Shown: in pieces, positions 1,701 to 64,000 of the stretch
How the letters are laid out: every line of letters starts with the position of its first letter
Position numbering within the stretch: the first letter of the stretch is position 1
Origin: a virus
Taxonomy: Duplodnaviria; Caudoviricetes
DNA length: 64,000 bases
Strand: one strand, 5' to 3'
Virus record (IMG/VR): IMGVR_UViG_3300035675_000001
Notes under the pieces: model-generated
What the model saw: only the letters and a program-made list of their open reading frames with translations
Database searches by the model: none
Told to the model about the DNA's origin: nothing
Made by a program: the position numbers and the translations under genes

Positions 1701-4027
1701 TCGACTTCGTTGTTCAGGATAACGTCGCCGATGCGAAGAAGTTCAGTTTCGACCGCTGACAGCATCTTGGTCGTATTGCCGGGGGTGTCGAGGGCCACAC
1801 GGTTGACGCCGACCACGCCGCTGATTGCCGCGATGACCTCAGTGATATTGGACTTGGAACCGACGATGCCGGATACCTCGCTGGCATAAATCGGAGAGCC
1901 GATTTGGAGGCCGTCGCCCCAGGCGCGAATCGCGGAACGAATCTCCCGGCGCTTGCTCTGAGACGTGTCGCCGGTGTAGCCCACGTAAATGTTTACAGTT
2001 TTGTCCGAAGCGTAGCCGACGATGGGAATGAGCTTCATGCTCAAGTCGCCGGGCACGCCCTTGATCCAAAGCGTGATCTGGCCGGTGAGCAGGTTGATCG
2101 TCGAGGGATAGTCGAGCGTGCCGCTCAGGTTGTCGCCAAACACTTGGGCGGTGCCGGGGATGATGCCGGGCACGACCGTCAATTCTTGGATGCCCAGGAA
2201 CAGGCGCACGGACCAGGCCGAAATCGGATAGATCACGAGCTGCGCGGAATACTGGCTCACCGTCACCTGGTCGTAGGTGCTGTAAACCGGAGTGCCGACC
2301 GACTGCTTGCTGAGCGCGTAAACAAACTCCTGGTCGGGTCGCGTCCACAGCTCCAGCGAGTTGGACGGATACAGGTCCGAAGTCGGCGTGGACATGTTGA
2401 TCGTATCGACGCCGTAAACCTCGTCGAGCGCCCGGACCAGGTTGGAGTAGAGCACCGGCTGGCCGGGCCGGAGCACGTCCACAAAGCTGTTGAGCGTGTC
2501 CTGAACCAGCAGCCCAGTATCGGTGACGCTGAACCCGGTGAAGACCTTGTAGCGCACGCTGACCGGGATGGGCCTGGCGGTGCCGTCGCCCAGGCGGACC
2601 AGATCGGTGCCGATGGCCTTCGTCTGCATGTAGTTCTCCAGGTCGATCTTTTGCGAAGCTGTCAAGTTGACCAGTGTGCCATTGGGTCCGCTCGTCCAGG
2701 CGTAGATGAAGACGAGATTGCCCTCCAAGAGCGAGTTCTCCGTCCGCACTGTGGCGCGGGCAAAGGTGACGCCCGGATACATCATGGCGATGGTCTGGTA
2801 ATCTTCTAAGGTTACCGCCCGGTCGTTGGCCCGTGTGGCGGCGGGGATGTTGACCCGCGCTTCCTCCAGGGTTTCAGCCTCGCGCCCGCCCGATCCGGCG
2901 TTTGTCCGGTTCGTAATCGCAATGGTGATCGGGTTGTTTGTGGAGCTAATCAGCCCGGTAATGGACGTGCTGATGGCGTTGATCTCGACGTTGCCTGCGG
3001 ACCCGCCGCCCACCCGGTAAGTGACGTTGATAGTCGCATCCGTAGGGATGACGGCTCCCAGGGTGCCGTCTCCAAAGATGATGAGCGGCTGGCCGGAAGC
3101 GGTGGTTTTGAAGACGAAATCGGTGGAGTCGCCGGTGGACTTGGCAAAGCTGGTAACCTGGTTCCAGATCGCACCGTTGACTACGACCTGAACAGAGCCT
3201 TCGATGACGGGGGTGGTGCTCAGCTTGACGACAAAAGAGGGAGTGGAATCCGAAGGCGACACGAAGCTATCGACCACGGTCAATCCCTGGACGCAGTTGA
3301 TGCGCTGGTCGTAGATCGTCGCCGTCACGGACGCCTGGATGCTGCCCTCGTAGGGGGTGGACAGAATCAGCCTGTTGTTCGTGATGGCCCCCGGCGATGC
3401 CTGGATGTCCTGGATCAAGTAGGTGTCCAGCTCGCCTGACACCTTGAAAACCTGGCCCGGTTGGACGAAATCAGCCAGGTTGATGGTGGTGTCGAGCAGA
3501 TCGACGTTCGACGAACCGGGTGTCACCAGGGCGAAGGTTGACAGCACGCTGGCACCTGTGGCCGAAGGGGAAATCGTGACGATGGGCGTGACCGGCGTCG
3601 TGTTGCCCGGCAGAATGAAATAGTCCTTCTCGACCTCGAACGGGATGGAATCCTGGGAGGAACTGCGGATGACGGTGCCCTTGGAAATGGTCACGGTCGC
3701 GCTCTCCAGGGCTGCCGTGATGGTCGCTTCGCAAGACACCGATGCGGCGGTCGGCCCGCGCAACTCGTATCCGGTCAGGCTGCCGATGTTCACGGCAGAC
3801 TCCCGCAGGGTCATCGTGTTGATGTAGTTCTCGCCCGCCGCCCGGTTGACCAGGAAGGCCATCGTGGCGGTTGACCAGGCGATCAGATCGACCAGAACGA
3901 TCCCGAAAGAGTTGTTCAGGAAGTCGTTCCAGACGCGGGGATACCGAGCGCGAACGCGCTGGAGGAGCGCGTCCTTGTGCGCCTGGTAATCGACGCGGAT
4001 AAATCGTAGCGTATTCTCTGTCGCCAT
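1697..4027 (-). CDS. Baseplate wedge protein (baseplate J / T4 gp6-like)
   Basis: DYQAHKDALLQRVR..YPRVWNDF, IIFGDGTLG..P, YRVGGGSAGNV, GSGGREAETLEEAR, RAVTLEDY. Confidence 0.9.
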   Translation of the reverse strand: MATENTLRFIRVDYQAHKDALLQRVRARYPRVWNDFLNNSFGIVLVDLIAWSTATMAFLVNRAAGENYINTMTLRESAVNIGSLTGYELRGPTAASVSCEATITAALESATVTISKGTVIRSSSQDSIPFEVEKDYFILPGNTTPVTPIVTISPSATGASVLSTFALVTPGSSNVDLLDTTINLADFVQPGQVFKVSGELDTYLIQDIQASPGAITNNRLILSTPYEGSIQASVTATIYDQRINCVQGLTVVDSFVSPSDSTPSFVVKLSTTPVIEGSVQVVVNGAIWNQVTSFAKSTGDSTDFVFKTTASGQPLIIFGDGTLGAVIPTDATINVTYRVGGGSAGNVEINAISTSITGLISSTNNPITIAITNRTNAGSGGREAETLEEARVNIPAATRANDRAVTLEDYQTIAMMYPGVTFARATVRTENSLLEGNLVFIYAWTSGPNGTLVNLTASQKIDLENYMQTKAIGTDLVRLGDGTARPIPVSVRYKVFTGFSVTDTGLLVQDTLNSFVDVLRPGQPVLYSNLVRALDEVYGVDTINMSTPTSDLYPSNSLELWTRPDQEFVYALSKQSVGTPVYSTYDQVTVSQYSAQLVIYPISAWSVRLFLGIQELTVVPGIIPGTAQVFGDNLSGTLDYPSTINLLTGQITLWIKGVPGDLSMKLIPIVGYASDKTVNIYVGYTGDTSQSKRREIRSAIRAWGDGLQIGSPIYASEVSGIVGSKSNITEVIAAISGVVGVNRVALDTPGNTTKMLSAVETELLRIGDVILNNEVD

Positions 4028-4031
4028 AGCC

Positions 4032-4650: not shown

Positions 4651-4694
4651 GCCATAGATACGAAGTAGAAATTGCTTACAATTTTGAGTTCTGC

Positions 4695-6356: not shown

Positions 6357-6398
6357 ATGTTTACAAAACTACTCGTGAGAAGGGCCGAAACTGGGGGC

Positions 6399-10484: not shown

Positions 10485-11434
10485 CAACTACCGACCTCAT
10501 CCTCACCGGCCTGCTGTCTGAAAAAGGGACCGGCATCTTCGTGAAGCAGCTCCGCACCGGGCCGATCTACACCTGCAAATGCCCCACCTGCGGCACGCTC
10601 CACGGCGCGTTCAGGAGTTACCCCGAAGCCGAAGCCAACCTGAAATGCCGCCAGTGCAACCGCACTGCCGTTGACAAGCTCAAGAAGGACGTGGCCAAGG
10701 TGGAGGAGCCGGAGAAGCCGCAGAAGAACATCTTCCAGAATCCGCTCAAGAAACCGACCGTGATCGGCGAAGCAGAGGACGATGACTTCCAGGTGAAGGA
10801 CGTGGGCCTGCCGGTGCAGGATCACATCCGCTACGAGATTTTCGATGGTCGTGAATACTACCCGCTGACCAACACCGGCCTGATCGGTCGCCAGGGCTGG
10901 AAAGACCTCGGCCAGTTCAGCGGCCAGTGGCGCTTCATGGGGATCAAGCCCAACGCCGCCGACCGGCGCTTCATCCCCTGGGCGGAAGTCGTGAAGGAGC
11001 TGGAGAGCGGCCAGTCCATCAGCGGCCACATCGTGGATTTCGACCACGGCAGCTACCGGCAGTGGGGCGCAATGGCAAAAGTTTACAGATTAACTGTAAA
11101 CGAATCCTTCGAGGACGATGAGATCGAGGATGTGAAGTCGATCTTGGGCGACATCCCGCTGGACCCCGATGCTCCCACGGAGCCAGGTCAGGTAAATAAG
11201 TGGGTGTGCGTGAACGCGCACCACGGGCAAGAATTTTACAGCCGCAGCGAGTTTCACGCGAATGGGTATCCCAAGCGCGTGCGCGTGAGCGGGAAATGCA
11301 AAACCTGGAAGACACGACCAAATGAATTTAAGCTCCCCGTCAAGTATGGACTCAATAAGAACCTTTATATCACCGATGCTGACGCGAGCGACTGGAGCAC
11401 AGTCGCCATTGGTCGAGACGGCAGGCCGATATGA
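10481..11434 (+). CDS. Three-module tagged protein with N-terminal Zn finger
   Basis: CKCPTC...CRQC; internal tags IGEAEDDDFQVKDV and VNESFEDDEIEDVKSI. Confidence 0.6.
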   Translation: MTTTDLILTGLLSEKGTGIFVKQLRTGPIYTCKCPTCGTLHGAFRSYPEAEANLKCRQCNRTAVDKLKKDVAKVEEPEKPQKNIFQNPLKKPTVIGEAEDDDFQVKDVGLPVQDHIRYEIFDGREYYPLTNTGLIGRQGWKDLGQFSGQWRFMGIKPNAADRRFIPWAEVVKELESGQSISGHIVDFDHGSYRQWGAMAKVYRLTVNESFEDDEIEDVKSILGDIPLDPDAPTEPGQVNKWVCVNAHHGQEFYSRSEFHANGYPKRVRVSGKCKTWKTRPNEFKLPVKYGLNKNLYITDADASDWSTVAIGRDGRPI

Positions 11435-14490: not shown

Positions 14491-14560
14491 ATCAGACCTA
14501 AATACGTTCTCTACAGTGCAGAACGGCATGATTGTCGGCTGAACGATTGAAAATGTAAAC

Positions 14561-15103
14561 ATGGGCATCACCCCTGAACAATTTCGTGAGATGGAAGCGC
14601 GGAACGACGCCAACCGAAAGAAGGGCCTGGCGACTCGTCCGGCTCCCGTCCCAGCCACGGCTACGGCTGCGCCGATGGTGGGTTGGCCCTGGCCCCTGCT
14701 ACCCTTCCCGGCATTCGACACCAGGGAGTTCACCTACCACGGGTCGCCCATCGGCAAACCCAGGATGACCCGAAGTGACAAGTGGAAGAAGCGCCCCCGC
14801 GTTCTCAAATACCGCGCCTTCTGCGACTCCCTCCGGGCCGCATCGGGCGTATTGCCGGAAAAGGCAGACATGGTGCTGGTCACCGCCTACTGCCCCATGC
14901 CGCTGTCCTGGTCGGGTAAAAAGAAAGCCGCCCTGAACGGCAAGCCCTGCCGGTCCAAACCAGACTGGGACAACATCGGCAAGGCCGTGTGCGACGCGCT
15001 CTTTGACGAGGACTGCTGTATCTGGCTCGGCCTGACCATCAAATACTGGTGCTTCACGGGCGAGGAACGACTGAACGTAAAGGTGCTCTATGCTAAATCC
15101 TAA
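14561..15103 (+). CDS. rusA: RusA-family Holliday junction resolvase
   Basis: PIGKPRMT...KPDWDNIGKAVCDALF.ED..IW. Confidence 0.85.
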   Translation: MGITPEQFREMEARNDANRKKGLATRPAPVPATATAAPMVGWPWPLLPFPAFDTREFTYHGSPIGKPRMTRSDKWKKRPRVLKYRAFCDSLRAASGVLPEKADMVLVTAYCPMPLSWSGKKKAALNGKPCRSKPDWDNIGKAVCDALFDEDCCIWLGLTIKYWCFTGEERLNVKVLYAKS

Positions 15104-15449: not shown

Positions 15450-15475
15450 CCTTGAATAATGTAAACATTTCCCAC

Positions 15476-15504
15476 TTGACCCGGTGGACGCTTTTGTTTA
15501 CATT
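15476..15504 (+). promoter_or_regulatory. Sigma-70-type promoter (TTGACC-N17-TACATT), probably near-leaderless
   Basis: -35 at 15476-81, 17-nt spacer, -10 at 15499-504; ATG 8 nt downstream; TGTAAACA at 15460 and TGTTTACA at 15495. Confidence 0.7.
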
Positions 15505-15512: not shown

Positions 15513-16136
15513 ATGGACGATACCAGTAAGCAATTACGGGACACGAACCTGAGATTTCACGGCCTTTGCCAAAAGGCGCGTGAATGGCTCCTGACGCAGC
15601 TTGCGACCAGGGGCTTCAACAGCAAGGCAGACGGGCACAAGATCACTACCACTGTCGAGGACGAAGCTACCGGTATCACCGCTGATGCCACGATCTGCAT
15701 TTGGCCAAAGGTGCGAGATTTTTCAAAGCTCGCTGAGGGGATCAAAGTTAGGGTAGAGCGCGACCGCCACGCGGTCAACTACGCGAGGGCGACCGAGAAG
15801 TGGGAGGACTTCCCGTGGGAGAAAATCATCGAAGCCCATGTCGAGGAGCTGAAACGACGCCTCAAGTCGAGGCTCCAATACCGGGCCGAGGAGAATGAGC
15901 GCGAGCGCCTTGAAACGCTCGCCAAGGAAGAAGTTCCACTGCCGTTGAACCCCGATCACTTCCGGGGTGAATACCTGTCCGGGTATGAGAGACGGCGCAA
16001 CCGAGACGGCACGTATCACGTTCAGGTGAACTGTCACCGTCTTACCGCAGAGCAAGCCCGCATCGTTCGGGATTTCGTTCTTGCGGCTAACCAGATCACT
16101 ACTCATGAAAAAACAACAGACACCGACCCGACCTAA
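15513..16136 (+). CDS. Hypothetical protein
   Basis: 207-aa ORF directly downstream of the promoter. Confidence 0.55.
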   Translation: MDDTSKQLRDTNLRFHGLCQKAREWLLTQLATRGFNSKADGHKITTTVEDEATGITADATICIWPKVRDFSKLAEGIKVRVERDRHAVNYARATEKWEDFPWEKIIEAHVEELKRRLKSRLQYRAEENERERLETLAKEEVPLPLNPDHFRGEYLSGYERRRNRDGTYHVQVNCHRLTAEQARIVRDFVLAANQITTHEKTTDTDPT

Positions 16137-16563
16137 GAAACGTGAGCCACGGACGCACATCGTGTCCTTCCGCCTGCGCGAAACCGAAGCCGACATGCTG
16201 CTCCAACACCTGGAGAAGCACCCTATCGCCGGATTCAAGTCCTTGAAGCAGTTCTGCCGCAAACTCAGCGTGGACTACGCGCTGGAACGGCTCATCTACA
16301 TCAATCCCATCGACTGCGAAATCAACTTCGACTCGCGGGAGTTTCTGCCGATTGAGCCGCCCAACTGCAAAATGTCCGACAAGAAGTTCATCAAGGCCCT
16401 CCGCGATTTCATCACGGTGCCGGAGAACTGGAACAAACTCCGCCTGTTCATGCTGCGGGCAGGCTGGCCGGAAAAACTCAAGAACGAGTGCCGCGATGCC
16501 GACAGTCAGGAACGTCTGCTGCTCGCGCAGCGCGTGCTCACCGAAATGCTAATCAAACCATGA
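16105..16563 (+). CDS. Ribbon-helix-helix (MobC/CopG-like) DNA-binding protein
   Basis: REPRTHIVSFRLRETEADML...G...LKQFCR alternating beta-strand followed by two helices. Confidence 0.55.
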   Translation: MKKQQTPTRPKKREPRTHIVSFRLRETEADMLLQHLEKHPIAGFKSLKQFCRKLSVDYALERLIYINPIDCEINFDSREFLPIEPPNCKMSDKKFIKALRDFITVPENWNKLRLFMLRAGWPEKLKNECRDADSQERLLLAQRVLTEMLIKP

Positions 16564-19424: not shown

Positions 19425-19846
19425 AAGCCGTTCCCATTGACCTGCTCCAGCAGATCGCTGATCGCAAGCTGGAGGTCACCGGCAAGAACATCTGGAACGC
19501 GCTCCGCTACCGCGCCCATATCCAGTTGATCGGCCACGACGGCGACGTGCTCACTGGCGTCCCTGGCACGGACAAGGTTGCCTCCATCCGGTTAACCAAG
19601 CGCGGGGAGGAAGCCCTGGCCAGCGCCGGAGCCAAGGCCATGTTCAACAAGGACGACCTTCCGATGGACGTGCGCCTGTGGGTCAGCTCCTTCCGCCGCT
19701 GGTGCCGGAACTGCCCGAAGCACGTCCACCTGGCCTACTCTGACGGCCAGCTTCACGTCCTGGGCGAAGACAGCAGCGGCCAGGTCAAGGATGATGACGG
19801 GCATCGGCTTTCGTCGATGAAAGTGCCGTGGGTAGTTAAGGCGTGA
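19421..19846 (+). CDS. Hypothetical protein
   Basis: 141-aa ORF with coupled start and stop. Confidence 0.5.
   Translation: MKAVPIDLLQQIADRKLEVTGKNIWNALRYRAHIQLIGHDGDVLTGVPGTDKVASIRLTKRGEEALASAGAKAMFNKDDLPMDVRLWVSSFRRWCRNCPKHVHLAYSDGQLHVLGEDSSGQVKDDDGHRLSSMKVPWVVKA
19832..19838 (+). promoter_or_regulatory. GTAGTTA element
   Basis: GGGTAGTTAAGGC-GTG, 4-nt spacer. Confidence 0.6.
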
Positions 19847-20415
19847 ACGACGCCGTTCAGGACATCATAGACTTTCTCTTGGAAGACGATCCGGTTCGCC
19901 GCGAGCGAGCCGCCTACGTCGCCCGGCTGCGGAAGCGCCACGTCCCTTTCTCCAAGATCGGCAAGACGATGCACGTCAGCCGCCAGCGTGCCCACCAACT
20001 CTACCGGTCCTTTGCCGAAACCGAAGAAGACTTCGAGGCGAAGGACTTGGCCAGCCCCTCCAGCCCGGAGGAAGCCCAGCAGAAGATCGCGGAGTGGATG
20101 AACGCCCACCAGATGCGCGGGGAGTTCAAGCTTTGGCCCAAGGGCACCTATCGCGGTCCCTACCCGGAATACGCCCAAAACGCCGAGTTCTCCATGACCC
20201 TGAGCGGCCTCCTGGCCGACGAATGGGAGGAGAACTTCCGCATCCAGGACGAGTTCGATCTGGTCTGCAAAAGCCTGGGCTACCACTACGAGCACGGCAC
20301 CCGCAGCTCCCTCCACTTCTATCTCAACCCGCCGATGGAAGCCAGCGAACTAGGGGAACCTCCGCCTGAGCGCGAACCGCTGCCGCCGCCCAATCTCCGA
20401 GACATCGAATTTTAG
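19843..20415 (+). CDS. Tagged protein with sigma-70 region 4-like HTH
   Basis: IIDFLLEDD; VPFSKIGKTMHVSRQRAHQL; tag FAETEEDFEAKDL. Confidence 0.55.
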   Translation: MNDAVQDIIDFLLEDDPVRRERAAYVARLRKRHVPFSKIGKTMHVSRQRAHQLYRSFAETEEDFEAKDLASPSSPEEAQQKIAEWMNAHQMRGEFKLWPKGTYRGPYPEYAQNAEFSMTLSGLLADEWEENFRIQDEFDLVCKSLGYHYEHGTRSSLHFYLNPPMEASELGEPPPEREPLPPPNLRDIEF

Positions 20416-20483
20416 TTCTACCTGGTGCGAATTGGGGGCCTTCACTGATGGTCCTTGAATTTGTTTACAAAATTTAGCACCGT

Positions 20484-22324: not shown

Positions 22325-22804
22325 ATGGCGGTCATGAAAAACTTCGTCGTTGTTCTCGTCGTCGCTGCACTGGCCGGATGTTCAACTCCGCCCGTGTCAA
22401 AACCCGCTACCACCACGGCGGTTGTGATGCCGCCATTGCCGCCCATGCCGCCCCTGCCTTCGGCAGCGCCAAAAGCTCGCATTGCCAGGATGGCCCTGGC
22501 AGCAGCGGGCGCACCGGCTGCCGCCCCACAGTCGTTTACATTTTCGGCCACGGACCCCTGTGCTCCCCGTGCCTGGGTGCAAGGGACCAACGTCCACCTG
22601 GAGTGGCCCTGCTTTACCAATGCGTGTTTCAGGATCGACAGCAGCACGAACCTGTTCACCTGGGAAACTATCGGGACCAGCATCAACTACGACACAGAGC
22701 CAGTGACGAATACCATTGTCGTCATTGACTTCACCGCTGGTCTCCGCTCGTGTCGATACTACCGCGTCGTGCCTGTGGACACCAACGGCGTCCGGTTACC
22801 CTGA
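22325..22804 (+). CDS. Lipoprotein with Pro/Ala linker and a Verrucomicrobia-type C-terminal 'STNL..W...YYRV' domain
   Basis: Lipobox LAGC; FRIDSSTNLFTWETI...CRYYRVV. Confidence 0.7.
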   Translation: MAVMKNFVVVLVVAALAGCSTPPVSKPATTTAVVMPPLPPMPPLPSAAPKARIARMALAAAGAPAAAPQSFTFSATDPCAPRAWVQGTNVHLEWPCFTNACFRIDSSTNLFTWETIGTSINYDTEPVTNTIVVIDFTAGLRSCRYYRVVPVDTNGVRLP

Positions 22805-24237: not shown

Positions 24238-24266
24238 TTGACACCGGAATCGAAATCGTTTACACT
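24238..24266 (+). promoter_or_regulatory. Sigma-70-type promoter (TTGACA-N17-TACACT)
   Basis: Perfect -35, 17-nt spacer, TAnnnT -10 preceded by GTT; heads the run of small genes at 24324-26635. Confidence 0.8.
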
Positions 24267-41539: not shown

Positions 41540-41551
41540 TTTGTAAACATT

Positions 41552-49984: not shown

Positions 49985-51142
49985 ATGGAATCAGACACAA
50001 GAGCTAAAGATGACAGTGGGCGGAACGCTCGTGGAGACCGGCCTAAAGCTGATGCAGTCAAGACTGTGTTCGTCTCCGGGTGCTTCGACCTCCTCCACGG
50101 CGGGCACATCGAGTTCCTTACGCAAGCCAAAGCCCTCGGCCAAAAGCTCGTCGTCTGCGTCCCCACGGACGAAGTGATCCAGCGGCACAAGCAGCGCCCC
50201 GCTGCCATGCCCTTGGATCACCGGATGGACGTGCTCAAGTCGCTTTCGATGGTGGACGAGGTTGTCGTCGGCGATGACCCGGACGCGGGGCTGAACTTCA
50301 AAACCAAGTTCGGCGAAATCAAGCCCGCGATCCTGGCCGTCACCGAAGATGACAAATTCGAGGCCGGGAAGCGGAAGCTCTGTAAACGGTTTGGAGCCGA
50401 ATATGTGAAGCTCCCCAAAACCCTCAAATACGAGCCTGTCAGCACAACTGACCTCCGCAACTCTCTCAAAGCCCCGGAATACGTTCCCGTGCGCGTGGAC
50501 TTCGGCGGCGGCTGGCTGGACGTGCCCCGGTTTGCCCGGCCTGACAGCTTCGTAGTCAACTGCGCCGTCACCCCGATGGTCAGCCTCAAGAACTGGGGCT
50601 ACGAGCGCAACGGCGGGCTGGGCGGGTCCGCCGCCTACAACGTCCTGATGGGCAATAACGCCGTCAACACCGAGCTGGAGCTGGGCGTTGGCTGGCAAGA
50701 CCCCGCCGTCATCACCGAGACCGGCCTGTGCTCCTGGGTCTCCGGGCCACGCCCGGTCCTGGACATGAAGACCTCCGGCGACTGGCTGGCGGGCATGATG
50801 GCGCTGGCCTGGACCGGCAAGCCCCACAACACGCCCAGCTTGGTCTCGAACTCACGCAACTGGGACATGATTGCCGAGGCAGGTAAAGTTTGCCGCAATG
50901 CCGTCCGCAGCGGGTCGTTCATGACCCTGGTGACGGGCATCAACCTGAGCTACACGGTTCAGCGTCAAGAGGGAATGGACGAATTGCCCTCTGTCGGCGA
51001 GATCGCCAAAAAGTATTGCGGGGGAGGATTTGGCGGATACGCATTATATTTGTTTACAAATTCGACTAACCGCGAGAGCTTCGTCGCGGCTGGGAGCGGA
51101 CGCATCGCAATCGAGCCGTTCATCCGCCAGCCTGGAAGCTGA
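49985..51142 (+). CDS. Cytidylyltransferase (RfaE/TagD-like) fused to a GHMP sugar kinase (HddA-like)
   Basis: FVSGCFDLLHGGH; PVRVDFGGGWLDVP, GGLGGSAA, GWQDP, KYCGGGFGGY. Confidence 0.85.
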   Translation: MESDTRAKDDSGRNARGDRPKADAVKTVFVSGCFDLLHGGHIEFLTQAKALGQKLVVCVPTDEVIQRHKQRPAAMPLDHRMDVLKSLSMVDEVVVGDDPDAGLNFKTKFGEIKPAILAVTEDDKFEAGKRKLCKRFGAEYVKLPKTLKYEPVSTTDLRNSLKAPEYVPVRVDFGGGWLDVPRFARPDSFVVNCAVTPMVSLKNWGYERNGGLGGSAAYNVLMGNNAVNTELELGVGWQDPAVITETGLCSWVSGPRPVLDMKTSGDWLAGMMALAWTGKPHNTPSLVSNSRNWDMIAEAGKVCRNAVRSGSFMTLVTGINLSYTVQRQEGMDELPSVGEIAKKYCGGGFGGYALYLFTNSTNRESFVAAGSGRIAIEPFIRQPGS

Positions 51143-51543: not shown

Positions 51544-53284
51544 GGCCCTGGCCATCCTCGCCCGCGTGCTGGAGTCCGACGAAGATTTCGTCGGCAAGGA
51601 CATGGACATCCACATGCCCTACGGCATCGGCAGCCGCGTGAAGGTCACCGATGGTGACTACACCGGCGAGCCAGGCACGGTCATGGGCATGGGGAACCTG
51701 GGCAACAACGTGCGCGGCTTTTGGGTCCACCTGGACGGGGCTGACGACGACATCAACAGCGCGATCCTCTACCCCGCCGACCGCCTGGCTCCCGCCCACG
51801 ACCTCAAGTATCCTCCCGGCATCCTCTGGCGCATCACCCAGGGCGAGTTCGCCGGGCGCAAGGCCATCCTGACCGGCACCAACAAGGCCGGAAGCATGTT
51901 CGTTCACGTCGAGGGGCACCCGGACGACTGGCAGATGATTTCCATGCGCCAGAACGAGTTGGAGCCGCTGGCCGAATCCGAGCTGATGGGCGACGAGGAC
52001 GACGTAAAAGCTGTGGCGGGCTACGTCACGCCGGAGTTGCAGCTCGACACCGATCCCAAGTCGAAGAACCAGCAGACTTTTGTTTACGCCTACGGCGAGT
52101 TCATTGGGACCGTTTCCGAAGACCTGGCCACGCCGGGCGACTGGGTGGTGACCTTCGTGCCCAACAAGGGCTACATCTGGAAGCGCGGGTTCAGGACCAG
52201 AGAGGATGCCGCAATGGCGATCTGGCAGGACCGCATCGGCATGAAGAAGCTGCGCGAGGAGGTCGAAGATGACGAGGGCTTCAAGGACGTTTACAGCGGC
52301 GAATACCCGACGTTCAACTTCCTGGTGAAGCGCGATCCGCAGGGCCGGGAGCAGTGGGGCAGCGGGGTGTGGAATGTTTACATCGACGGCTCAGAGCTGG
52401 GCATGGAGCACGTCCCCCACATGTGGATCGGCGAGATCGAAGCCGTGCGCGGCGAGGGCAACCAGCTCCAAGGCTGGCGCATCAGCAACCTGCCCTACCC
52501 GTCATCGCCCAAAGCCATCCCTGAGCTTTTTCCGCAGCAGCTCGACGCCGCCCGCTACATTTGGGGCGAGCGCCTGCGCCCGCGCAACGAGGCCAAGGAC
52601 CATCAGCGAGTTCGCCGCCTGGTCGGCAAGCTGATTGACGAAGCCGATGAGGACGAGCCTGACTTCAAGGAGTTCGCCTTCGATCCCGTGGCCAGCGCCG
52701 TAAGCGCCCTGGAGGGAGCCGGGTTCAAGATCGAGCGAGCCGACCGTGAGGGCGACGACATCTTCCTGCGGTTCACCTGGCCCGCGTTCAACGCCGTCGC
52801 CTACATCAATGGGGCCAAGCGGGCGCTGGAAGCCATCCGGCCTTTCATCAACGTGAGGCACGGCGACTACCGCGTGGACCGGGAGCTGGACGAGCAGGGC
52901 CAGAAGATCGCCCGCATGTTCATCCGCCGAAAGGATGACCAGGCACCCTGGCTCTGGAAGATCGAGCGCATCCCCAACTATTACGACCACAATGTCGCGC
53001 CGGGGGACGTGGTGAACACGTCGGCGGAATACAAGATTTTCTTCAATGGCCAGGAAGCAGGACTGTTCTTGGCACCGAACTATGACGTAGCGGAGCGCGT
53101 CCGGGAGGAGATGGCCCAACTGCACAAGGTGCATGGGTTTTACCCTCCTGGATGGGACGCGCCCGGTAACGCATGGGGCAAGGGCCACGCCATTGAGTGG
53201 TGGAGACGCAACCGTAAAAAGTTAGGCAACGTCGCCAGAAGCAACGAACCGTTTTTTGATCGGGGCCTCCTGGCGACCCGATAA
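51536..53284 (+). CDS. Four-tag polyprotein-like protein with two KOW/SH3-like units
   Basis: Tags VLESDEDFVGKDM, LAESELMGDEDDVKAV, LREEVEDDEGFKDV, LIDEADEDEPDFKEF; RVKVTDGDYTG..G and WRITQGEFAG..A. Confidence 0.65.
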   Translation: MSEALAILARVLESDEDFVGKDMDIHMPYGIGSRVKVTDGDYTGEPGTVMGMGNLGNNVRGFWVHLDGADDDINSAILYPADRLAPAHDLKYPPGILWRITQGEFAGRKAILTGTNKAGSMFVHVEGHPDDWQMISMRQNELEPLAESELMGDEDDVKAVAGYVTPELQLDTDPKSKNQQTFVYAYGEFIGTVSEDLATPGDWVVTFVPNKGYIWKRGFRTREDAAMAIWQDRIGMKKLREEVEDDEGFKDVYSGEYPTFNFLVKRDPQGREQWGSGVWNVYIDGSELGMEHVPHMWIGEIEAVRGEGNQLQGWRISNLPYPSSPKAIPELFPQQLDAARYIWGERLRPRNEAKDHQRVRRLVGKLIDEADEDEPDFKEFAFDPVASAVSALEGAGFKIERADREGDDIFLRFTWPAFNAVAYINGAKRALEAIRPFINVRHGDYRVDRELDEQGQKIARMFIRRKDDQAPWLWKIERIPNYYDHNVAPGDVVNTSAEYKIFFNGQEAGLFLAPNYDVAERVREEMAQLHKVHGFYPPGWDAPGNAWGKGHAIEWWRRNRKKLGNVARSNEPFFDRGLLATR

Positions 53285-53285
53285 C

Positions 53286-53917: not shown

Positions 53918-56900
53918 AGGAAGTGGATGACATCCTGGCCGCGCTCCTGGAGGATGAGGATGACCTCAGCTCCAAGGACGTGTTCTTCCCCAATGACCCC
54001 AAGGCTGTGGACTTCTCCGAGCCGCTGGCGGGCAATGAGGCGAAGCTGCGCCGGGTGTTCACCTGGCTCACGCGCCTGGGGATGACGCCCGCCTTTGGCA
54101 GCGTGCCCATCGGCTGGTATCAACAGGCCCAGTTCGAGGCCATCGACCGGCTGCGGGCGCTGGCCAAGCTCAAGGGCATTGACCTGCGCTGGGTCAAAAA
54201 GAAGAACGAGCACATCCTGGCCTATCACCAGGACCGCTGGGTGCCCATCGCCAAGTTCGGCTGGCGAGATGAGCTGGTCGCCGAAGCGATGGACGACGAC
54301 TTCGACATGAAGGAAGTCACGGGCGGGGCCTTCGATGAGCTGGCCCAGCTTGTAGCCAGCGGCGTCCTGGACCTGAGCGGCAAGGTCGAGCGTGGCAGTT
54401 CCCGCTACGTCCACGAGCGCAGCACCACCTTCGAGCTTTACAACAGCTACAACTGGCCGGACGACATGCCGCAGGAGGAGCGCGAGGCCGAAGAAGTCCG
54501 CATCGACAAGCTCATCAGCGAGCTGGAGAAGTATGTCAGCGAGCGCATCGTTGCCTGGAACCACAAGATTTACCAGGAGTTGGAGAAGGACTACGAGTGG
54601 GCTTACGAGGACGAGAACATCGCCGACACTCTGGAAGCAAACGACTACCACTTCACCGAGGATGGTGAGCGGGATGATGAAGGCCCATTCACCTACCAGC
54701 AACTCCAGCCCGACGCCCAAGAGGCTGCCCGCCAGTGGTGGAAGGACGCCAACGAGCAGGACAACTGGTGGAGCGAATCGACCATTGCCGAGTGGAAGTG
54801 GCTGCTCGACCAGAAGGGATTCCTTGGCGTGGAGATCGCCTTTAGCGGCTTCTGGAGCCAGGGCGATGGCGCTTCCTTCGAGGCCAAGCGGTTTGACGCG
54901 GCCCAGTTCTTCAAGGGCGTCGATCCCCTCGACTTCCCGGAGCAGGACCGCGAGCAGATGAGCGAGTCCCAGGAAGATGACATCCATCCCAAAGACCTGG
55001 CGACCACCAACCCGGAGGACGTGGCTTCCGAAATCCTCCGCCTGGTCACCGCCATTCCGGGCGTGACCGACGTGACCATGACCAGGGGCGCGGTCAACCC
55101 GGAGCACGTCATCATCAACGGCAAGATCAACCTCGACCACTGGGACGCGGGCTACGCCATCGACAAGGCGATCTTCCCGGTCATGGAGAACCCTGCCGTC
55201 GAGATTACTCGCCACACCGCCTTCGCCGCCCCGATGGACAAATATCCGCGTGGCTTCGCCGTGGTGGTCAAGCCCGCGCTGCGCGAGTCACTGCTGGAGC
55301 GTTACGGCGGGGCCGAGAAAGAGCGCCAGATTTTCTACCACGGCACGACCTCCACCCTGCTGCCCAAGATTCTCGCCCAGGGCTTGATTCCCAATCCCAA
55401 GGTCCGCTCCTGGTCCGACGATCCGCACAAGGGCCTCATCCAGCCCTCGCGCCAAAGCCTGGAGGGCATCTACGTCACGACCAACCTGATGACTGCCGTC
55501 TCCGCCGCTGGCCGCGTGGCCCGGCGCGACAAGGCCCACCGGCTGATCGTGGTGATGGAGCTGCAACCCCGCGACCTCCTGGCCGACGAGGATGACATCG
55601 GCGGCACGATCAACGCACTGGCCAACCACATCAGCGACCACGTTTACTCGCACATCTGGCCCTACTTCGCCGAAGTCTATCGAGACCGAATGCGCTACGC
55701 GGAGGAATACGCGCCCCGCGCCGACCAGGCCAAGGCCAAATGGGTGGACGACGCCGCCAAGCAGATGCTCTACAAGTTCGGCCAGAACAGGCCGGAGCTG
55801 GAGACCCGCCTGCGCGAGCTGCTGGCCAACGAGGGCTACCGCATCATGCTGACCCGCATGGCCTCCTATGCGGGCGACTGGGAGAAGGGCTACTGGCACA
55901 GCGAATGGCGGCACCTGTTTGGGACCGACGAGGACGCTCCTCCGGTGCCGGACAAGAACCAGGCCGAAGCAGACTTTCTCGCTTTCAAGGACAAGCTGAC
56001 GCGCACGCTCAAGGGCAAAGCCCGCCCGCTGATGCAGAAGGACTGGAAGCTCAACGTCAGTGGCCGGTCCATGAAGCCCATCGGTTTCGACGGCAGCGAC
56101 CGCATCATCTGCATCGTCGAGGAGATCGACCACTCCGGGCCGGAGTATTACACCGGCATGATCGTCCACTACGGCAAGCCGCCCGAACAGCTCATCAAGG
56201 ACTGGACCGAATCCCACGGCCCCCTGGACAAGCCAGACAGCATTGTTTACAAAAACGCGCAGCAGGAAGCTTTCGAGACGCACGGCCAGGCTTTGGCCCG
56301 CACCGGCGAGTGGGGCACCCAGGCGGCAGGCGGCGTCTATATCGCCCAGGACACCGGGCGCGTGCTCATCGGCTTTCGCTCCAGCGATGTTCTCAAGCCG
56401 CACACCTGGGGCACCTTCGGCGGAGCAATGGACGAAGGCGAAGACGCGGCCACGGCTGCCCAGCGCGAGATGAAGGAGGAGACCGGCTACAGCGGGCCGA
56501 TGGAGATGAAGCTCGTTTACGTTTTCGAGAAGGGCACGTTCAAGTATCACAACTTCGCCGTCATCGTGCCCGCCGAGTTCAAGCCGCGCCTCAACTGGGA
56601 GAACGATGACGCCGAGTGGTTCGAGCCGGGCAAGTGGCCAAGCCCGCTTCACCCTGGCATGGATCAGCTTCTTTCGCGCCTGGGCGCGGTCCAGGAGTCC
56701 GAGGATGACGACTTCGACGTGAAAGAAGTGGCCAAGGTCGATGACGGAATCTTCGTCAACTACACCTACGACTCGCACGACCCCGATGGCCAATACGAGC
56801 AGGTGTGGGAAGACGAGGGACCGTTCGTGTCCATGCAGAGCGCCTACGAGTGGGCGCAGAAAAACCTGTCCCGCGACAAGATCGCCGAGCTGAACATCAC

Positions 56901-57930
56901 CCGCGAAGTCCTGGGCAGCGTGACCGACAAGATCATCGTCGATCAGTTTTGGGGAACCTGGGAGAAGCGCGGCGAGCAAACGGTTCCTGTAAACATTTCC
57001 GAGGCAGCCGATGACGACTTTGAAACCAAGGAGATCGCCGAGTTTGACCCGGACCCGTTGACGTTGACGCGCAACTTCATGGAGACGGCCTACACGACGC
57101 ACGGCGATCTGGACCGCTTCATGACCAAGCTCTCCGAGGTCGTGGACTGGCCCCAGCTCTACGCCGCCTATCCGCGCATGGCTGACATGCCGGTCAAGCT
57201 TTACGGCGGCGTGCCCATGCAGATCGGCTGGGCTGTGAGCAGACCCGGCACGGTTGCAGGCGTCAACCTGGAGCCAGGGCAGACTGTGTTCCTTGTTGGT
57301 CGCCAGGCATTCGATGATGCGCCCAAGCGCCTGGAGCGCCGGTTCGCGTGGGCCATCAAGTGTGCCCTCGACGTGCTCGATGGCCGCAACCCGGACAAAG
57401 AAGCCGCCAAAGAGTGGGCCGCGAGAAAGACCAAGAGCCGCTGGCCCGACGACTACCAGTATGGGTTTGAAAGCCGTGATCCCGACGCCGTAGTGGAAAC
57501 TGCCGAAGACGACTTTGAGGTCAAGGATGTGGGGCTGCCCGGCCAGAACTGGACCTACCACATCTTCCGCTTCCCCACCGCAGCGGCCATCAACTACTTC
57601 GTGGTCGAAGACCCGGCCTTCAAACACGAGCCGTTTGTGACCGACCGCACCGGCGATGAGCTGGAACGCGGCATCCGCCCTCGCTGGCCCAACTGGGACA
57701 AGCTGGGCAAGACGGTGGGCGGTCACACCTTCCCCCGGCGAATGCCGGACAAGGAGCTTCACCAGATCGCCCAGGCGCAGATCAGGCAGTTCTTGAGAGC
57801 GGGCGAATTTCCGCGCCAGGGCTACCGCGACGTGTGGGAATGGATGCGGGATGTGCGCGACACCGGCAAGCCCCATGATCCGCTCCCGTGGGACATCCGC
57901 AGGCGCGGCAATACTTACAGACAGATATGA
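53914..57930 (+). CDS. 1338-aa tagged polyprotein containing ART-like and NUDIX domains
   Basis: Six tags; FYHGTTS.LLPKILAQGLIP...GIYVTT; GGAMDEGEDAATAAQREMKEETG Nudix box; FSGFWSQGDGASF domain. Confidence 0.8.
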   Translation: MKEVDDILAALLEDEDDLSSKDVFFPNDPKAVDFSEPLAGNEAKLRRVFTWLTRLGMTPAFGSVPIGWYQQAQFEAIDRLRALAKLKGIDLRWVKKKNEHILAYHQDRWVPIAKFGWRDELVAEAMDDDFDMKEVTGGAFDELAQLVASGVLDLSGKVERGSSRYVHERSTTFELYNSYNWPDDMPQEEREAEEVRIDKLISELEKYVSERIVAWNHKIYQELEKDYEWAYEDENIADTLEANDYHFTEDGERDDEGPFTYQQLQPDAQEAARQWWKDANEQDNWWSESTIAEWKWLLDQKGFLGVEIAFSGFWSQGDGASFEAKRFDAAQFFKGVDPLDFPEQDREQMSESQEDDIHPKDLATTNPEDVASEILRLVTAIPGVTDVTMTRGAVNPEHVIINGKINLDHWDAGYAIDKAIFPVMENPAVEITRHTAFAAPMDKYPRGFAVVVKPALRESLLERYGGAEKERQIFYHGTTSTLLPKILAQGLIPNPKVRSWSDDPHKGLIQPSRQSLEGIYVTTNLMTAVSAAGRVARRDKAHRLIVVMELQPRDLLADEDDIGGTINALANHISDHVYSHIWPYFAEVYRDRMRYAEEYAPRADQAKAKWVDDAAKQMLYKFGQNRPELETRLRELLANEGYRIMLTRMASYAGDWEKGYWHSEWRHLFGTDEDAPPVPDKNQAEADFLAFKDKLTRTLKGKARPLMQKDWKLNVSGRSMKPIGFDGSDRIICIVEEIDHSGPEYYTGMIVHYGKPPEQLIKDWTESHGPLDKPDSIVYKNAQQEAFETHGQALARTGEWGTQAAGGVYIAQDTGRVLIGFRSSDVLKPHTWGTFGGAMDEGEDAATAAQREMKEETGYSGPMEMKLVYVFEKGTFKYHNFAVIVPAEFKPRLNWENDDAEWFEPGKWPSPLHPGMDQLLSRLGAVQESEDDDFDVKEVAKVDDGIFVNYTYDSHDPDGQYEQVWEDEGPFVSMQSAYEWAQKNLSRDKIAELNITREVLGSVTDKIIVDQFWGTWEKRGEQTVPVNISEAADDDFETKEIAEFDPDPLTLTRNFMETAYTTHGDLDRFMTKLSEVVDWPQLYAAYPRMADMPVKLYGGVPMQIGWAVSRPGTVAGVNLEPGQTVFLVGRQAFDDAPKRLERRFAWAIKCALDVLDGRNPDKEAAKEWAARKTKSRWPDDYQYGFESRDPDAVVETAEDDFEVKDVGLPGQNWTYHIFRFPTAAAINYFVVEDPAFKHEPFVTDRTGDELERGIRPRWPNWDKLGKTVGGHTFPRRMPDKELHQIAQAQIRQFLRAGEFPRQGYRDVWEWMRDVRDTGKPHDPLPWDIRRRGNTYRQI

Positions 57931-58352
57931 ACGGCTTTGTCACAACTCAGCGTTACGGGACCACATTTGATGTGCCCATCAGCCTGCCGCAGACTGAACT
58001 CCGGCGCGGGCGCTACATCAACTGCGGCCAAATCCGGCTGACGCTGGGCCAGGTCTTGCGGATTCGCTGCCTGAACCTGCACCTGGTCAACATCATCACG
58101 GCCACGGCGCTGCCCGACATTTTCAGCACGCCCCTGGGCATCGTGAGCGCAGGCGTCTATCTCTCGCCGATGATGTGCTCGTCGTCCTGTCTGCTGACCG
58201 CTCAGTCGCCTGGGATCATTTCTGTAAACAGTTTCGCCTACAAGGAATACCGGTCGCCTGGCCTCTATTACTTCACCGTCAGCAACAACACGACGAACGT
58301 GGACGTGAGCGTCGCCCTGACGGGGGTCATCAAGCTGCTCAACTACGCATGA
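57927..58352 (+). CDS. Beta-rich virion protein, paralog of 53432..53917
   Basis: FDVPISLPQTELR...PGLY...SNN..NVDVSVALTG. Confidence 0.55.
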   Translation: MNGFVTTQRYGTTFDVPISLPQTELRRGRYINCGQIRLTLGQVLRIRCLNLHLVNIITATALPDIFSTPLGIVSAGVYLSPMMCSSSCLLTAQSPGIISVNSFAYKEYRSPGLYYFTVSNNTTNVDVSVALTGVIKLLNYA

Positions 58353-61281: not shown

Positions 61282-61292
61282 AACGTAAACAA

Positions 61293-61976: not shown

Positions 61977-62674
61977 TGTGCCGGGATCAAATTCCAGTCT
62001 GCATCCAGTCCTGCTCGAAGGAGTTCGCCTTCGAGCGGCGAATGGCTTGCCTGGACACTTGGGTTCCGACGTTATCGTCGAAATTCTACCCCATCTTCCT
62101 GGTCGGCAACCCCGACCAGGAAGTTGATTACATCTTCAAGGAGCTAGGCCCTGGCTGCGGCAATTACCTCAGCGTCCGCTTCTGCGACGAGTGGTATGCG
62201 CTCTCCGGCAAGATGAGGCGCTGGTGGGTGTGGGCGCTGGAGCACTTCGACGCGCCCTGGTTTTTCAAGTGCGACGACGACAGCTACGTCAACGGCAGGC
62301 TGTTCAACGATTTCCCCTTTGAGCGTTACGACTACACCGGCCATTTCTACACCGAAACTTACGCCTGGAAGCAGAAACGTCCGCTGGTTGGCAGCGAGAT
62401 TCAATACAAGGCCCACGGCGCGGGCTACAGCCTTTCCCGGCGCTGCGCCAAGCTCGTGTCCGAGAAGCTGGGCGACTGGGAGCCTGGCGGCGAAGACGTG
62501 AGCACGGCCAGGACCATCTTCAACGGCATCCCCGACGTGGTGATCCACGACATGTGGGAACCGCGAGTCGCGCCCTGGGCCAGACTGAACATGCAGCCCG
62601 ACTGGTTGGTCGGCCACGAGATTCGGGGCATGGACATGATGCGCCAGGTTCACCGGAAGGTAGTTAATCCGTGA
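61976..62674 (+). CDS. GT31/Fringe-like galactosyltransferase
   Basis: WFFKCDDDSYVN, GAGYSLSR, EDV. Confidence 0.8.
   Translation: MCRDQIPVCIQSCSKEFAFERRMACLDTWVPTLSSKFYPIFLVGNPDQEVDYIFKELGPGCGNYLSVRFCDEWYALSGKMRRWWVWALEHFDAPWFFKCDDDSYVNGRLFNDFPFERYDYTGHFYTETYAWKQKRPLVGSEIQYKAHGAGYSLSRRCAKLVSEKLGDWEPGGEDVSTARTIFNGIPDVVIHDMWEPRVAPWARLNMQPDWLVGHEIRGMDMMRQVHRKVVNP
62660..62666 (+). promoter_or_regulatory. GTAGTTA element before the terminal polyprotein
   Basis: GGTAGTTAATCC-GTG, 4-nt spacer. Confidence 0.6.
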
Positions 62675-64000
62675 GACTAAAGACGACCTCGCTCAAGCGC
62701 GGCCTGCTCCTCTATCACGGCACCAGCTCGCCGGATTTTGACGAGCGGGCTGGCAGCCTCGCTTTCCCTGCCTGGTTCAGCGAGAAGGAGCGCGTCGCCC
62801 GCTACTTCGTCAACTGGCATGGTGAGCCGGAGCCTTACCCCTACAACGAGGAGCTGCCAAGCTCCGCCCGCATTATTGTTTACAAAGTCTCTCAGCCCAT
62901 CAAGGTGCTCCTCATCCCGGACGGCGAGACGATGGATTACATCCGCGACGAGATGGCGATGGCCGACGACGTTGAAACCCTGGCCGACTGGTGCTGCTCC
63001 AACGGCTACAACGGCTGGGTCATCCCCAACAACTACCCCGCCGAGGGCGGCAGCGACATCATGCTCTGCCGAGACGAGGGCCTGGAGTATGTTGAGACCA
63101 AGGCCCTCAACGAGAGCGCCGAAGACTTCGACAGCAAGGATGTCAGCGAGCCGGACCCGGTGGGGCTGGTTCACAGCATCATCCAGAACGCCGGGATCAC
63201 CGACATCAACGTGAAGCGCACAGGCCGGTCCATGATATTCGACGGCATCCTGGGCCGGTATCCCACGCACACCAGGGACGGCACCAAGATCGAGGTCGCC
63301 GACCTGTGCTACGCCCAGCAAATCTCCTGGAAGATCGCGGAGCTGCCCCAGGTCGAGAAGTGTAACGCGACCACCAACCGGCTGCCGGACGGGCGCAAGA
63401 CGGCTCACTTTTGGGTGCTCTGGCGCGAGGAGACCAACGCGCAAATCCAGATGGAGGCAGAAGAAATTGTAAACAATCTCATCGAGGCCAACAGCGCCCA
63501 CCTGGAGATGGCCACGCGAGCAGCCCGCTGGATTTACCAGCACGACCCTGACTTCTTCGAGGGCGGCTGCGGCGATGTCAACCACGTCATCAAGAAGTTC
63601 CTGGAGACCCAGCAGGTGCCCGTTCGCCTGCTCACCGGCTATGCCGTCTTCGCCCGCGAGAAGGTGCCTCATGCCTGGCTAGAGATTGACGGCCAACAGT
63701 TTGACCCGGTTTACACGCTCCAGCGCATCGTGCCCAAGAGCTACGTGCCCAAGCCAATGGACCTGGGCGACTTCGGGGTGGACGAGGAAAGCGGCTACCA
63801 CGACGAATTAGTCCAGCAGCTCCAGCAGGCCGTGACCCTGGGCGAGAGCGAGGAGGAAGACGACTTCAAGGATGCCTGGAAGGAGCCGGACGCCTGGGAA
63901 TGGATGCGCGACACCTTGCCCGGCCTGGGCTTCCAGTATGAAGACATGGGCATCAAACACTGGTGGAAGAAGGCCAAAGGCGGCAAGCGCGTGCGGGTAT
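62671..64000 (+). CDS. 3'-truncated tagged polyprotein: ART-like domain, unknown module, transglutaminase/papain-like domain (absent from the ORF track)
   Basis: GTG overlaps the upstream TGA and the frame stays open to the window end; LLYHGT...AWFS; tags LNESAEDFDSKDV and LGESEEEDDFKDA; GGCGDV...HAW...FDP. Confidence 0.7.
   Translation, partial: MRLKTTSLKRGLLLYHGTSSPDFDERAGSLAFPAWFSEKERVARYFVNWHGEPEPYPYNEELPSSARIIVYKVSQPIKVLLIPDGETMDYIRDEMAMADDVETLADWCCSNGYNGWVIPNNYPAEGGSDIMLCRDEGLEYVETKALNESAEDFDSKDVSEPDPVGLVHSIIQNAGITDINVKRTGRSMIFDGILGRYPTHTRDGTKIEVADLCYAQQISWKIAELPQVEKCNATTNRLPDGRKTAHFWVLWREETNAQIQMEAEEIVNNLIEANSAHLEMATRAARWIYQHDPDFFEGGCGDVNHVIKKFLETQQVPVRLLTGYAVFAREKVPHAWLEIDGQQFDPVYTLQRIVPKSYVPKPMDLGDFGVDEESGYHDELVQQLQQAVTLGESEEEDDFKDAWKEPDAWEWMRDTLPGLGFQYEDMGIKHWWKKAKGGKRVRV

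Follow-up and report, generated by a model that had tools for sequence, protein, structure and literature searches.

A dispersed eight-letter word selected at the DNA level in a clade of jumbo phages, with a lineage-specific centre and a putative role as a protein-binding site

Operator-like words scattered along the genome have been described in a few groups of temperate phages, and we know of none in jumbo phages. Chromosome-organising sites, namely those of Noc (Noc-binding sites, NBS), SlmA (SlmA-binding sites, SBS), MatP (matS) and ParB (parS), are 12-16 bp long and lie tens of kb apart. In Cluster A mycobacteriophages (L5, Bxb1, Trixie), 13-bp asymmetric stoperators are found genome-wide, and binding of the repressor to them blocks transcription elongation (PMC6550527). 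Here we describe an iterated 8-bp word, TGTAAACA (TGTTTACA on the opposite strand), in a 64-kb window of DNA from an uncultured wetland jumbo phage (IMG/VR record IMGVR_UViG_3300035675_000001), analysed together with about 50 loci of 11-22 kb from its relatives. The word is selected at the DNA level and belongs to a family, TGTA-N-ACA, that extends across the clade; it may serve as the site of a phage-encoded DNA-binding protein. A literature search found no relevant publication on TGTAAACA or TGTTTACA in phages, nor on the perfect palindrome TGTATACA.

A pattern search of the window found 20 exact copies, each at the coordinate given in a preliminary description of this DNA. The plus strand reads nine of them as TGTAAACA and 11 as TGTTTACA, the two interleaved along the window without polarity. 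Dinucleotide-preserving shuffles gave 0.42 expected copies (maximum 3) and an order-3 Markov model gave 1.36. The resulting enrichment is 15-45 fold, and under the Markov model the word ranks first among the over-represented 8-mers of the window. The 7-mer core TGTAAAC occurs 40 times, with 6.3 copies expected (order-3 Markov). Copies of the word recur about once per 2-3 kb, in both genes and promoters, within DNA whose GC content is 0.60 throughout.

Alignment of the copies bore out the A/T-rich flanks that had been reported: the word is preceded on its 5' side by about 4 nt and followed on its 3' side by 3 nt that are 75-90% A/T, A predominating to the left and T to the right. With its flanks the site spans 15 nt, has approximate two-fold symmetry and reads roughly AAA-TGTAAACA-TTT; A/T-flanked duplex forms of the word are written TGTANACA and AAATGTAAACATTT. 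Among one-mismatch copies, 15 of 36 have A/T at five or more of seven flank positions, against a background of 9%, and the exact copies and flanked one-mismatch copies amount to about 35 sites in 64 kb. The individual one-mismatch copies named earlier were found at 4673, 24257, 25782, 26041, 47408 and 61284, within 1 nt of the positions first given. This distribution is like that of stoperators, in which one short site has up to about 30 copies genome-wide, few in promoters and most elsewhere (PMC6550527).

Thirteen exact copies are coding and seven non-coding, although non-coding DNA makes up only about 7% of the window; the coding copies lie mostly in a Val-Asn or Val-Tyr frame. The window lacks GTAC (0 versus 231 expected), GTMKAC (0 versus 58) and GTGCAC (0 versus 21), and the purge of GTAC and GTMKAC presumably occurred under host restriction. 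A reading in which the word has no function would take its excess as a side effect of this triple purge combined with codon-pair preferences. Such an effect does operate on the Val-Tyr pair, which is encoded as GTT-TAC in 32 of 54 cases because GTC-TAC, GTG-TAC and GTA-TAC would create avoided sites. It also largely accounts for the 6-mer GTAAAC/GTTTAC, found 51 times against 38.6 in synonymous shuffles that forbid GTAC and GTMKAC. The partial attribution of GTTTAC to restriction avoidance in the preliminary description was therefore sound; its statement that avoidance explains neither GTAAAC nor the flanks stood for the flanks, but not for the bare 6-mer.

The longer words behave differently. 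In coding DNA the 8-mer occurs 13 times against 0.9 in a plain synonymous shuffle, and against 1.96 when GTAC and GTMKAC are forbidden (maximum 6 in 300 shuffles; 6.6-fold); on the sense strand alone, the constrained shuffle gave 0.25 against 6 observed. The 7-mer TGTAAAC occurs 30 times against 11.3 under the same constraint. GTA is a rare codon, as had been claimed (68 of 1344 Val codons), yet 13 of these 68 precede AAC. Given the in-frame dicodon GTA-AAC, flanks T..A are present in six of 13 cases against 0.39 expected (p = 1e-6), and given GTT-TAC in five of 32 against 0.97 expected (p = 0.003), while the control dicodon GTC-AAC has such flanks in none of 44. The excess persists both in the shuffle that preserves amino acids and forbids GTAC and GTMKAC and in the test conditional on the dicodon; the outcome that the preliminary description had named as a refutation was not obtained. 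Codon effects, moreover, cannot yield the non-coding copies, the A/T flanks or the positional conservation described below, and the family is still denser in relatives without such avoidance. Whereas the excess of the bare 6-mer GTAAAC is mostly a by-product of avoidance, that of the 7-mer and 8-mer is not: the word is selected at the DNA level and is not a coding by-product. We regard the absence of any function as extremely improbable, and a pure avoidance by-product as essentially excluded. The depleted words, GTAC, GTMKAC and GTGCAC, are neighbours of TGTAAACA, which is itself enriched, unlike a restricted site, which would be depleted, or a protected site, which would be neutral.

Gain and loss of individual sites were followed in L004, a 21.7-kb contig with a homologue 59% identical to the window's 582-amino-acid protein; it has four exact copies in 12.9 kb and contains neither GTAC nor GTMKAC. 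Nine syntenic genes (56-86% amino-acid identity) were aligned by codon, which revealed that three of seven window sites and three of four L004 sites are shared, at 56-81% protein identity. The shared sites, all kept with their flanks, are 51051..51058 (minus strand), in an 18-nt A/T island; 56244..56251 (minus), in a 1338-amino-acid gene, where ATTGTTTACAAAAA is conserved in a protein 59% identical; and 63468..63475 (plus), where AAATTGTAAACA is conserved in a protein 56% identical. The other compared sites are lineage-specific: 52375..52382 (minus), where L004 reads AGTTTATG and has a separate copy, 64 nt off in the alignment, 56988..56995 (plus), 58223..58230 (plus) and 62877..62884 (minus). 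Where a site was gained or lost, the protein is nearly unchanged and the DNA has been rewritten by synonymous A/T shifts, as in ATCATCTACAAC versus ATTGTTTACAAT or, at 62877, ATTGTTTACAAA in the window versus ATCACCTACCGA in L004. Such synonymous rewriting at gained sites is a signature of selection acting on about 12 bp of DNA.

L005, L006 and L011-L013 have additional sites in common with the window. The exact copy at 1990..1997 (minus) lies within the baseplate-wedge gene (1697-4027, minus), in the sense of the gene, and the homologous position reads TGTTTACA in L006, TGTTTACG in L012 and CGTTTACA in L013. An intragenic inverted pair of 7-mer cores, GTTTACAG-ATTAA-CTGTAAAC (11080..11102), has both halves partly conserved in L011 and L012. 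Other exact coding copies are 26473..26480 (plus, Val-Asn frame), 29415..29422 (minus, Val-Tyr frame), 44512..44519 (plus) and a copy at 32919 (minus) that is accompanied by a second core, TGTAAACG, at 32940, 21 nt off in the same orientation (32919..32947 in all).

Relatives were found through the helicase encoded at 4701-6356, for which more than 400 homologues exist on contigs as long as 260 kb; their loci comprised five helicase neighbourhoods and 80 more from a metagenome scan. In most of about 30 related jumbo-phage loci with a helicase at least 46% identical, TGTA-N-ACA is 5-14 fold over the order-3 Markov expectation. It is unenriched in L007, L054, L055 and L065, in the more distant loci of 47-48% GC, in L082, L085 and L088, and in the nearest cultured phage, Tunturiibacter phage Tunturi_5 (32% helicase identity), from which the word is absent. 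Other words of the form TGT-NN-ACA (TGTTAACA, TGTCAACA and others) are unenriched, from which it follows that the site is the palindrome TGTATACA in which one centre position can vary. The preliminary description had proposed TGT-WW-ACA. Its two-fold TGT/ACA site is retained and its WW centre is not: both TGTTAACA and TGTATACA are absent from the window, which has no copies of the other three TGTA-N-ACA members, and N is G or C in relatives. A megablast search of the window against cultured phages gave no match, nor did a helicase scan of viral contigs; a genome-contig scan aimed at the host gave one 8.8-kb contig in a Flavobacteriales metagenome-assembled genome, which was uninformative.

The centre letter differs by lineage. 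It is A only in the window and its close relatives L004, L005, L006, L011 and L012; mostly A in L016 (10 of 11 copies, 15.9 kb), L019 and L025; mostly T, giving the perfect palindrome TGTATACA, in L008, L047 and L023; mostly G in L030, L027, L039 and L074; and all four letters in L068 and L087. With N=C the word would contain GTAC, and with N=G or N=T it contains GTAGAC or GTATAC, both of the AccI type GTMKAC. The A form is the sole member permitted in the window because GTAC and GTMKAC are fully purged there, and the C form is seen only at loci that tolerate GTAC. Lineages avoiding GTMKAC (the window, L004, L005, L011 and L012) have A only, at 0.14-0.31 sites per kb, and non-avoiding lineages reach 0.4-0.9 sites per kb. 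Differences of consensus between lineages, with sites both conserved and turned over, are also a property of stoperators (PMC6550527). Tolerance of GTAC and GTMKAC could not be ascribed to a methyltransferase, as an N6/N4 gene lies near only L008 and L009 and shows no general correlation. As side observations, GTGCAC is absent at almost all loci of the clade and avoidance of GTAC and GTMKAC is lineage-specific; the window has two copies of GTTAAC and four of CTAG.

Type II restriction and modification sites are typically compact (pseudo)palindromes of this kind, 8 bp long and free at the centre, and the word belongs to the GTNNAC group of AccI and HincII. It might accordingly be the target of an enzyme, such as a nickase, a primase or other replication-initiation function, a Chi-like signal, or an orphan methyltransferase or other base modifier. 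The uniform density, neutral orientation and intragenic location of the sites would suit such a target, as would the N6/N4 methyltransferase gene close by in L008 and L009. That gene is, however, absent from the other 50-odd loci, including all close relatives of the window. Over-representation of a methylation or cleavage site would be unusual, Chi and nick sites are strand-specific in known systems, and an enzyme target leaves the excess at promoters unexplained. We judge it quite improbable.

Placement of the sites was analysed with respect to genes and their junctions. Non-coding DNA is about 3-5 fold enriched in sites, and in the window 13 of 35 sites fall in about 7% of the DNA (about 5-fold). 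The earlier impression that copies occupy most non-coding gaps was overstated, since, of about 28 gaps exceeding 40 nt, about 11 contain a site. All six divergent junctions have a site, either in the gap or no more than 75 nt from it, and none of the six convergent junctions does, the chance of a site in any 200-nt interval being about 0.1 (35 sites, 64 kb). The six are 4650/4701 (site 4673), 14490/14561 (14554), 24166/24324 (24257), 39007/39091 (39011), 41024/41036-41072 (40953) and 47371/47394 (47408). At the first, the one-mismatch copy 4673..4680 (minus; TGCTTACA on the plus strand) is in the promoter region of the helicase, where AGTTCT follows 7 nt downstream. At the second, the final A of the exact copy 14554..14561 (plus) is the A of the RusA start codon. 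The third has a one-mismatch copy, 24257..24264 (minus), and the fourth an exact copy, 39011..39018 (minus), 3 nt ahead of the ATG that starts 38546-39007, a minus-strand gene. The exact copy 40953..40960 (plus) is located 64 nt inside the minus-strand gene 40533-41024, and the one-mismatch copy 47408..47415 (plus; GGTAAACA) lies 14 nt into the gene starting at 47394.

Several other sites lie between genes or at their ends. The exact copy 6358..6365 (minus) is 1 nt past the helicase stop and 34 nt upstream of a GTAGTTA element; it is conserved in L011 and L012, and L006 has AGTTTACA. Two exact copies form an inverted pair, 15460 (plus) and 15495 (minus), 27 nt apart between two co-directional genes (15460..15502); the pair can form an A/T stem of 14 bp (-16.3 kcal/mol, z -4.1). 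It resembles the inverted pairs that uptake signal sequences (USS) and DNA uptake sequences (DUS) form between genes. These sequences and Chi are, like the word, over-represented 8-10-mers maintained in coding DNA at a codon cost; they are host-cell, one-strand and polar, whereas the word shows no polarity and is limited to a phage clade. Further intergenic copies are the exact copy 20462..20469 (minus), in the gap upstream of the 20484/20493 gene; the one-mismatch copy 22533..22540 (minus; CGTTTACA on the plus strand), with A/T flanks; and the exact copy 41542..41549 (plus), which fills the 12-nt spacer between the stop at 41539 and the start at 41552. The one-mismatch copy 25782..25789 (minus) lies 8 nt past the stop of 25475-25774, and we observed that it occupies the loop of a GCCTCG...CGAGGC inverted repeat right after that stop codon (25765-25800).

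Between about two thirds and 70% of copies are intragenic. They are uniform along genes, with no excess at either end and no concentration upstream of the next gene, and are not internal promoters for that gene. Relative to transcription, 57 have the same and 53 the opposite orientation over 32 non-redundant loci (6 and 7 in the window). This equal frequency of both orientations in coding DNA ruled out an RNA-level reading as a PUF-like UGUA-N-AUA signal. Uniform placement in genes, neutral orientation, a mostly intragenic (pseudo)palindromic word and a density maintained while individual sites turn over would all be expected if a nucleoid-type phage protein compacted, organised, packaged or marked the 240-kb chromosome, the copies at promoters being incidental. 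The NBS, SBS, matS and parS sites are likewise dispersed, orientation-neutral palindromes, mostly in genes, with known dimeric readers. In contrast to them, the sites here are 8 bp plus flanks, recur every 1-3 kb, which is 20-50 times denser than known chromosome-organising sites, and show a clear promoter excess. The 3-5 fold enrichment of non-coding DNA, the contrast between divergent (6/6) and convergent (0/6) junctions, and the conserved positions by CGTTCT and at the RusA start also speak against a purely architectural or self-marking role, which we consider unlikely.

The regulatory aspect is clearest at the helicase promoter. The arrangement TGTTTAC(A/G)-N7-GTTCT-N8-14-ATG upstream of the helicase is common to L006 and L010-L012; L013 has TGTATAC and is one nt shorter, and the window has TGCTTACA. 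L016, L019, L025 and L032 have an equivalent TAACTA...CGTTCT helicase promoter region without the word, which indicates that the word is an optional add-on, like an operator, and not a core element. A second group of copies abuts start codons: in five window genes and one L027 gene the word, invariably in the sense orientation, lies -1 to +3 nt from the start, and most window genes have no Shine-Dalgarno sequence. Besides RusA, where TGTAAAC-ATGGGCATC (TGTAAAC-ATG) is kept in L005 and L006 and L011 has AGTAAACA (AGTAAAC-ATG), this group includes two one-mismatch copies reading CGTAAACA. One is 26041..26048 (plus), whose final A is the A of the start codon at 26048. The other is 61284..61291 (plus), 1 nt before the ATG at 61293; another degenerate copy overlaps the upstream stop, and in L004 TGTAAACG overlaps the orthologous stop codon.

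These copies raise the alternative that RNA polymerase, together with a phage factor, reads the word as a promoter element, which would either resemble a MotA box or -35 element for a CGTTCT class of promoters or define a leaderless-mRNA class at the ATG. In T4, the MotA box (wwwTGCTTtA) lies about 12 bp upstream of the -10 element of middle promoters. MotA boxes are, like the sites here, A/T-flanked words of 8-9 bp in a phage with T4-like virion modules, and at the helicase promoter TGCTTACA has a MotA-like place just upstream of a -10-like element; a word 7-8 nt upstream of (A/C)GTTCT recurs at this promoter in six relatives. The sense copies at starts without a Shine-Dalgarno sequence would likewise suit the leaderless class. 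The short start-associated sequences (SAS) of Cluster K mycobacteriophages are 13 bp long, contain the ribosome-binding site and occur at gene starts only; they share with the five start-adjacent window copies a position right upstream of starts, but such copies are a minority here. MotA boxes are directional, restricted to promoters and held at a fixed distance, whereas here orientation and spacing vary, 13 of 20 exact copies are intragenic and uniformly placed, and relatives retain the promoter without the word. Coding copies are orientation-neutral and do not gather upstream of the next gene. Among the 40 TGTAAAC cores none has a fixed spacing to GTTCT or TAGTTA, the helicase promoter being the only fixed geometry, and spacings to CGTTCT are 8-11 nt in both orientations. 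At RusA the final A of the word is already the first coding nucleotide, which excludes a -10 to +1 distance. A promoter element proper is in our estimation a poor and rather improbable explanation.

Three open reading frames (ORFs) of the window were considered as candidate readers. ORF 16105..16563 (plus) has an N-terminal segment resembling a ribbon-helix-helix (RHH) fold, for which language-model and structure comparisons gave weak leads to RHH_1, MetJ, CopG and NikR clusters; it has no Pfam or PDB match. ORF 19843..20415 (plus) has a segment that by eye resembles a sigma region-4-like helix-turn-helix and has no Pfam, PDB or Atlas match. The third, 39091..40065 (plus), is a phage bacterial enhancer-binding protein (bEBP) with only an AAA+ sigma-54 activator domain and a C-terminal HTH_8 domain (Pfam), whose loop reads GAYTGS instead of GAFTGA; an exact copy of the word lies 73 nt upstream of its start, at the divergent junction mentioned above. 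The activating sites of bEBPs are paired, about 80-150 bp upstream of a sigma-54 promoter (GG-N10-GC). The sites here are, unlike those, single and dispersed, and a regular-expression search found no credible sigma-54-type promoter (TGGCAC-N5-TTGC type) in the window. Among about 30 window proteins scanned, none matched an integrase or repressor family.

Taken together, the symmetric and strand-neutral site, selection over about 12-15 bp, conservation limited to the clade, lineage-specific centre letters and concentration at promoters point to a dimeric phage DNA-binding protein. We therefore favour, with moderate confidence, the reading that TGTAAACA is the lineage version of a clade recognition word, TGTA-N-ACA, and the putative site of a symmetric, dimeric, phage-encoded protein that binds double-stranded DNA at operators and at dispersed sites. 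Such a protein could resemble MetJ, in which one dimer reads an 8-bp palindromic met-box, AGACGTCT, in tandem arrays at a few promoters. For TGT and ACA arms centred 5 bp apart, an RHH dimer or an enzyme-like reader would be a better match than a dimer of the helix-turn-helix type, and the MetJ/RHH geometry of one dimer per compact 8-bp palindrome fits TGTATACA better as well. The dispersed sites found here are unlike the tandem arrays of met-boxes at few promoters, and the RHH assignment of the 16105 ORF draws on weak leads.

DNA-level selection holds A/T-flanked TGTA-N-ACA at about 0.3-0.9 copies per kb, with the centre in this lineage locked to A by the purge of GTAC, which N=C would make, and of GTMKAC, which N=G or T would make. 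On the favoured reading, copies at divergent junctions, by the -10-like CGTTCT and abutting starts would probably be operators, and a position between the -10-like element and about -27, or on the start itself, would favour repression. Copies spread through genes would probably be additional dispersed sites, acting as stoperator-like roadblocks, reservoirs or bridging points. The intergenic copies look regulatory and the coding copies look density-driven. The sequences themselves show the enrichment, the selection on DNA, the family across the clade, the logic of the centre letter and the placement of the sites; from these we infer binding by a protein, its phage origin and the effect of binding.

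The analogy with stoperators has its bounds. Stoperators are read by a phage-encoded protein that blocks transcription (PMC6550527), and the reader here is putative only. The sites also differ from stoperators in being an 8-bp pseudo-palindrome without preferred orientation, uniformly distributed and about 70% intragenic, in an apparently lytic jumbo phage.

Several points weigh against the favoured reading. Stoperators belong to temperate phages, whereas this phage looks lytic, and the uniform intragenic copies, about two thirds of all, would fit an operator model only by analogy. The search for a binder among the candidate ORFs (Pfam, PDB sequences and Atlas) gave at most weak RHH leads, and an 8-bp site with arms 5 bp apart is ill-suited to a classical helix-turn-helix dimer. 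The start-adjacent copies are all in the sense orientation, for which a purely symmetric reader does not account. L016, L019 and L025 favour N=A without avoiding GTAC or GTMKAC; restriction avoidance is therefore not the only reason for an A centre. Finally, gene calls were made with a crude codon-usage script of our own, trained on long ORFs with high third-position GC, and the non-coding fractions are approximate; over 32.6-47.8 kb the calls match gene tables from public contigs.

Other iterated words were observed in the window and its relatives. In the window, CTACACC occurs 32 times against 8 expected, ACTACACC 15 against 1.9, GGCACCAA 27 against 5.4 and CTCGCGCA 16 against 2.1. The word CTGCAAAA is found at 12 places against 0.85 expected (for example 5484, 16365 and 39829), 11 of them on the coding strand; it was considered as a sigma-54 signal and rejected, since it looks instead like a Leu-Gln-Lys codon context on the coding strand and no sigma-54-type promoter was found. 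GTAGTTA(AGGC) lies 0-8 nt ahead of the start codons of at least eight genes (13 copies against 2.1 expected), for example at 4028-4041 (minus), 19830-19842, 26626-26638, 30512-30524 and 62658-62670, and (C/A)GTTCT lies 7-14 nt ahead of other start codons. The Tunturi_5 locus L091 (PP885688.1, 117090-158640) has an iterated word of its own, GCTAATACC(C), with CTAATACC present 12 times in 41.5 kb against 0.2 expected and CGTTCT 43 times. L074 and L073 have a repeated word family (ACTACCAC 30 times, AGTCGTGG and ACCACGAC 22 times each in 20 kb), which suggests a tandem or dispersed repeat. Among the helicase homologues of 700-900 amino acids, P0015, P0027 and P0055 have intein or homing-endonuclease Pfam domains (PF05203, PF14890, PF03161).

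The word is conserved in a deep and widespread clade, represented in wetland, soil, rhizosphere and lake metagenomes. It costs codon choice and marks every divergent promoter junction, which points to a central regulator or organiser. The comparative series constitutes a natural experiment, leading from four centre letters through one preferred letter to the sole letter left by the purge of GTAC and GTMKAC. The word could be used as bait for its binder, by DNA pull-down or DNA affinity purification sequencing (DAP-seq), and as a marker of the clade in metagenomes. A more speculative extension, which we regard as possible but doubtful, is that the roughly 100 flanked TGTA-N-ACA sites per 200-260-kb genome form a code, through which one putative phage protein both gates promoters and organises or marks the chromosome, while the free centre would let the code outlast host restriction by moving to a letter that is still permitted. 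If true, this would be a binding-site vocabulary visibly reshaped by restriction avoidance.

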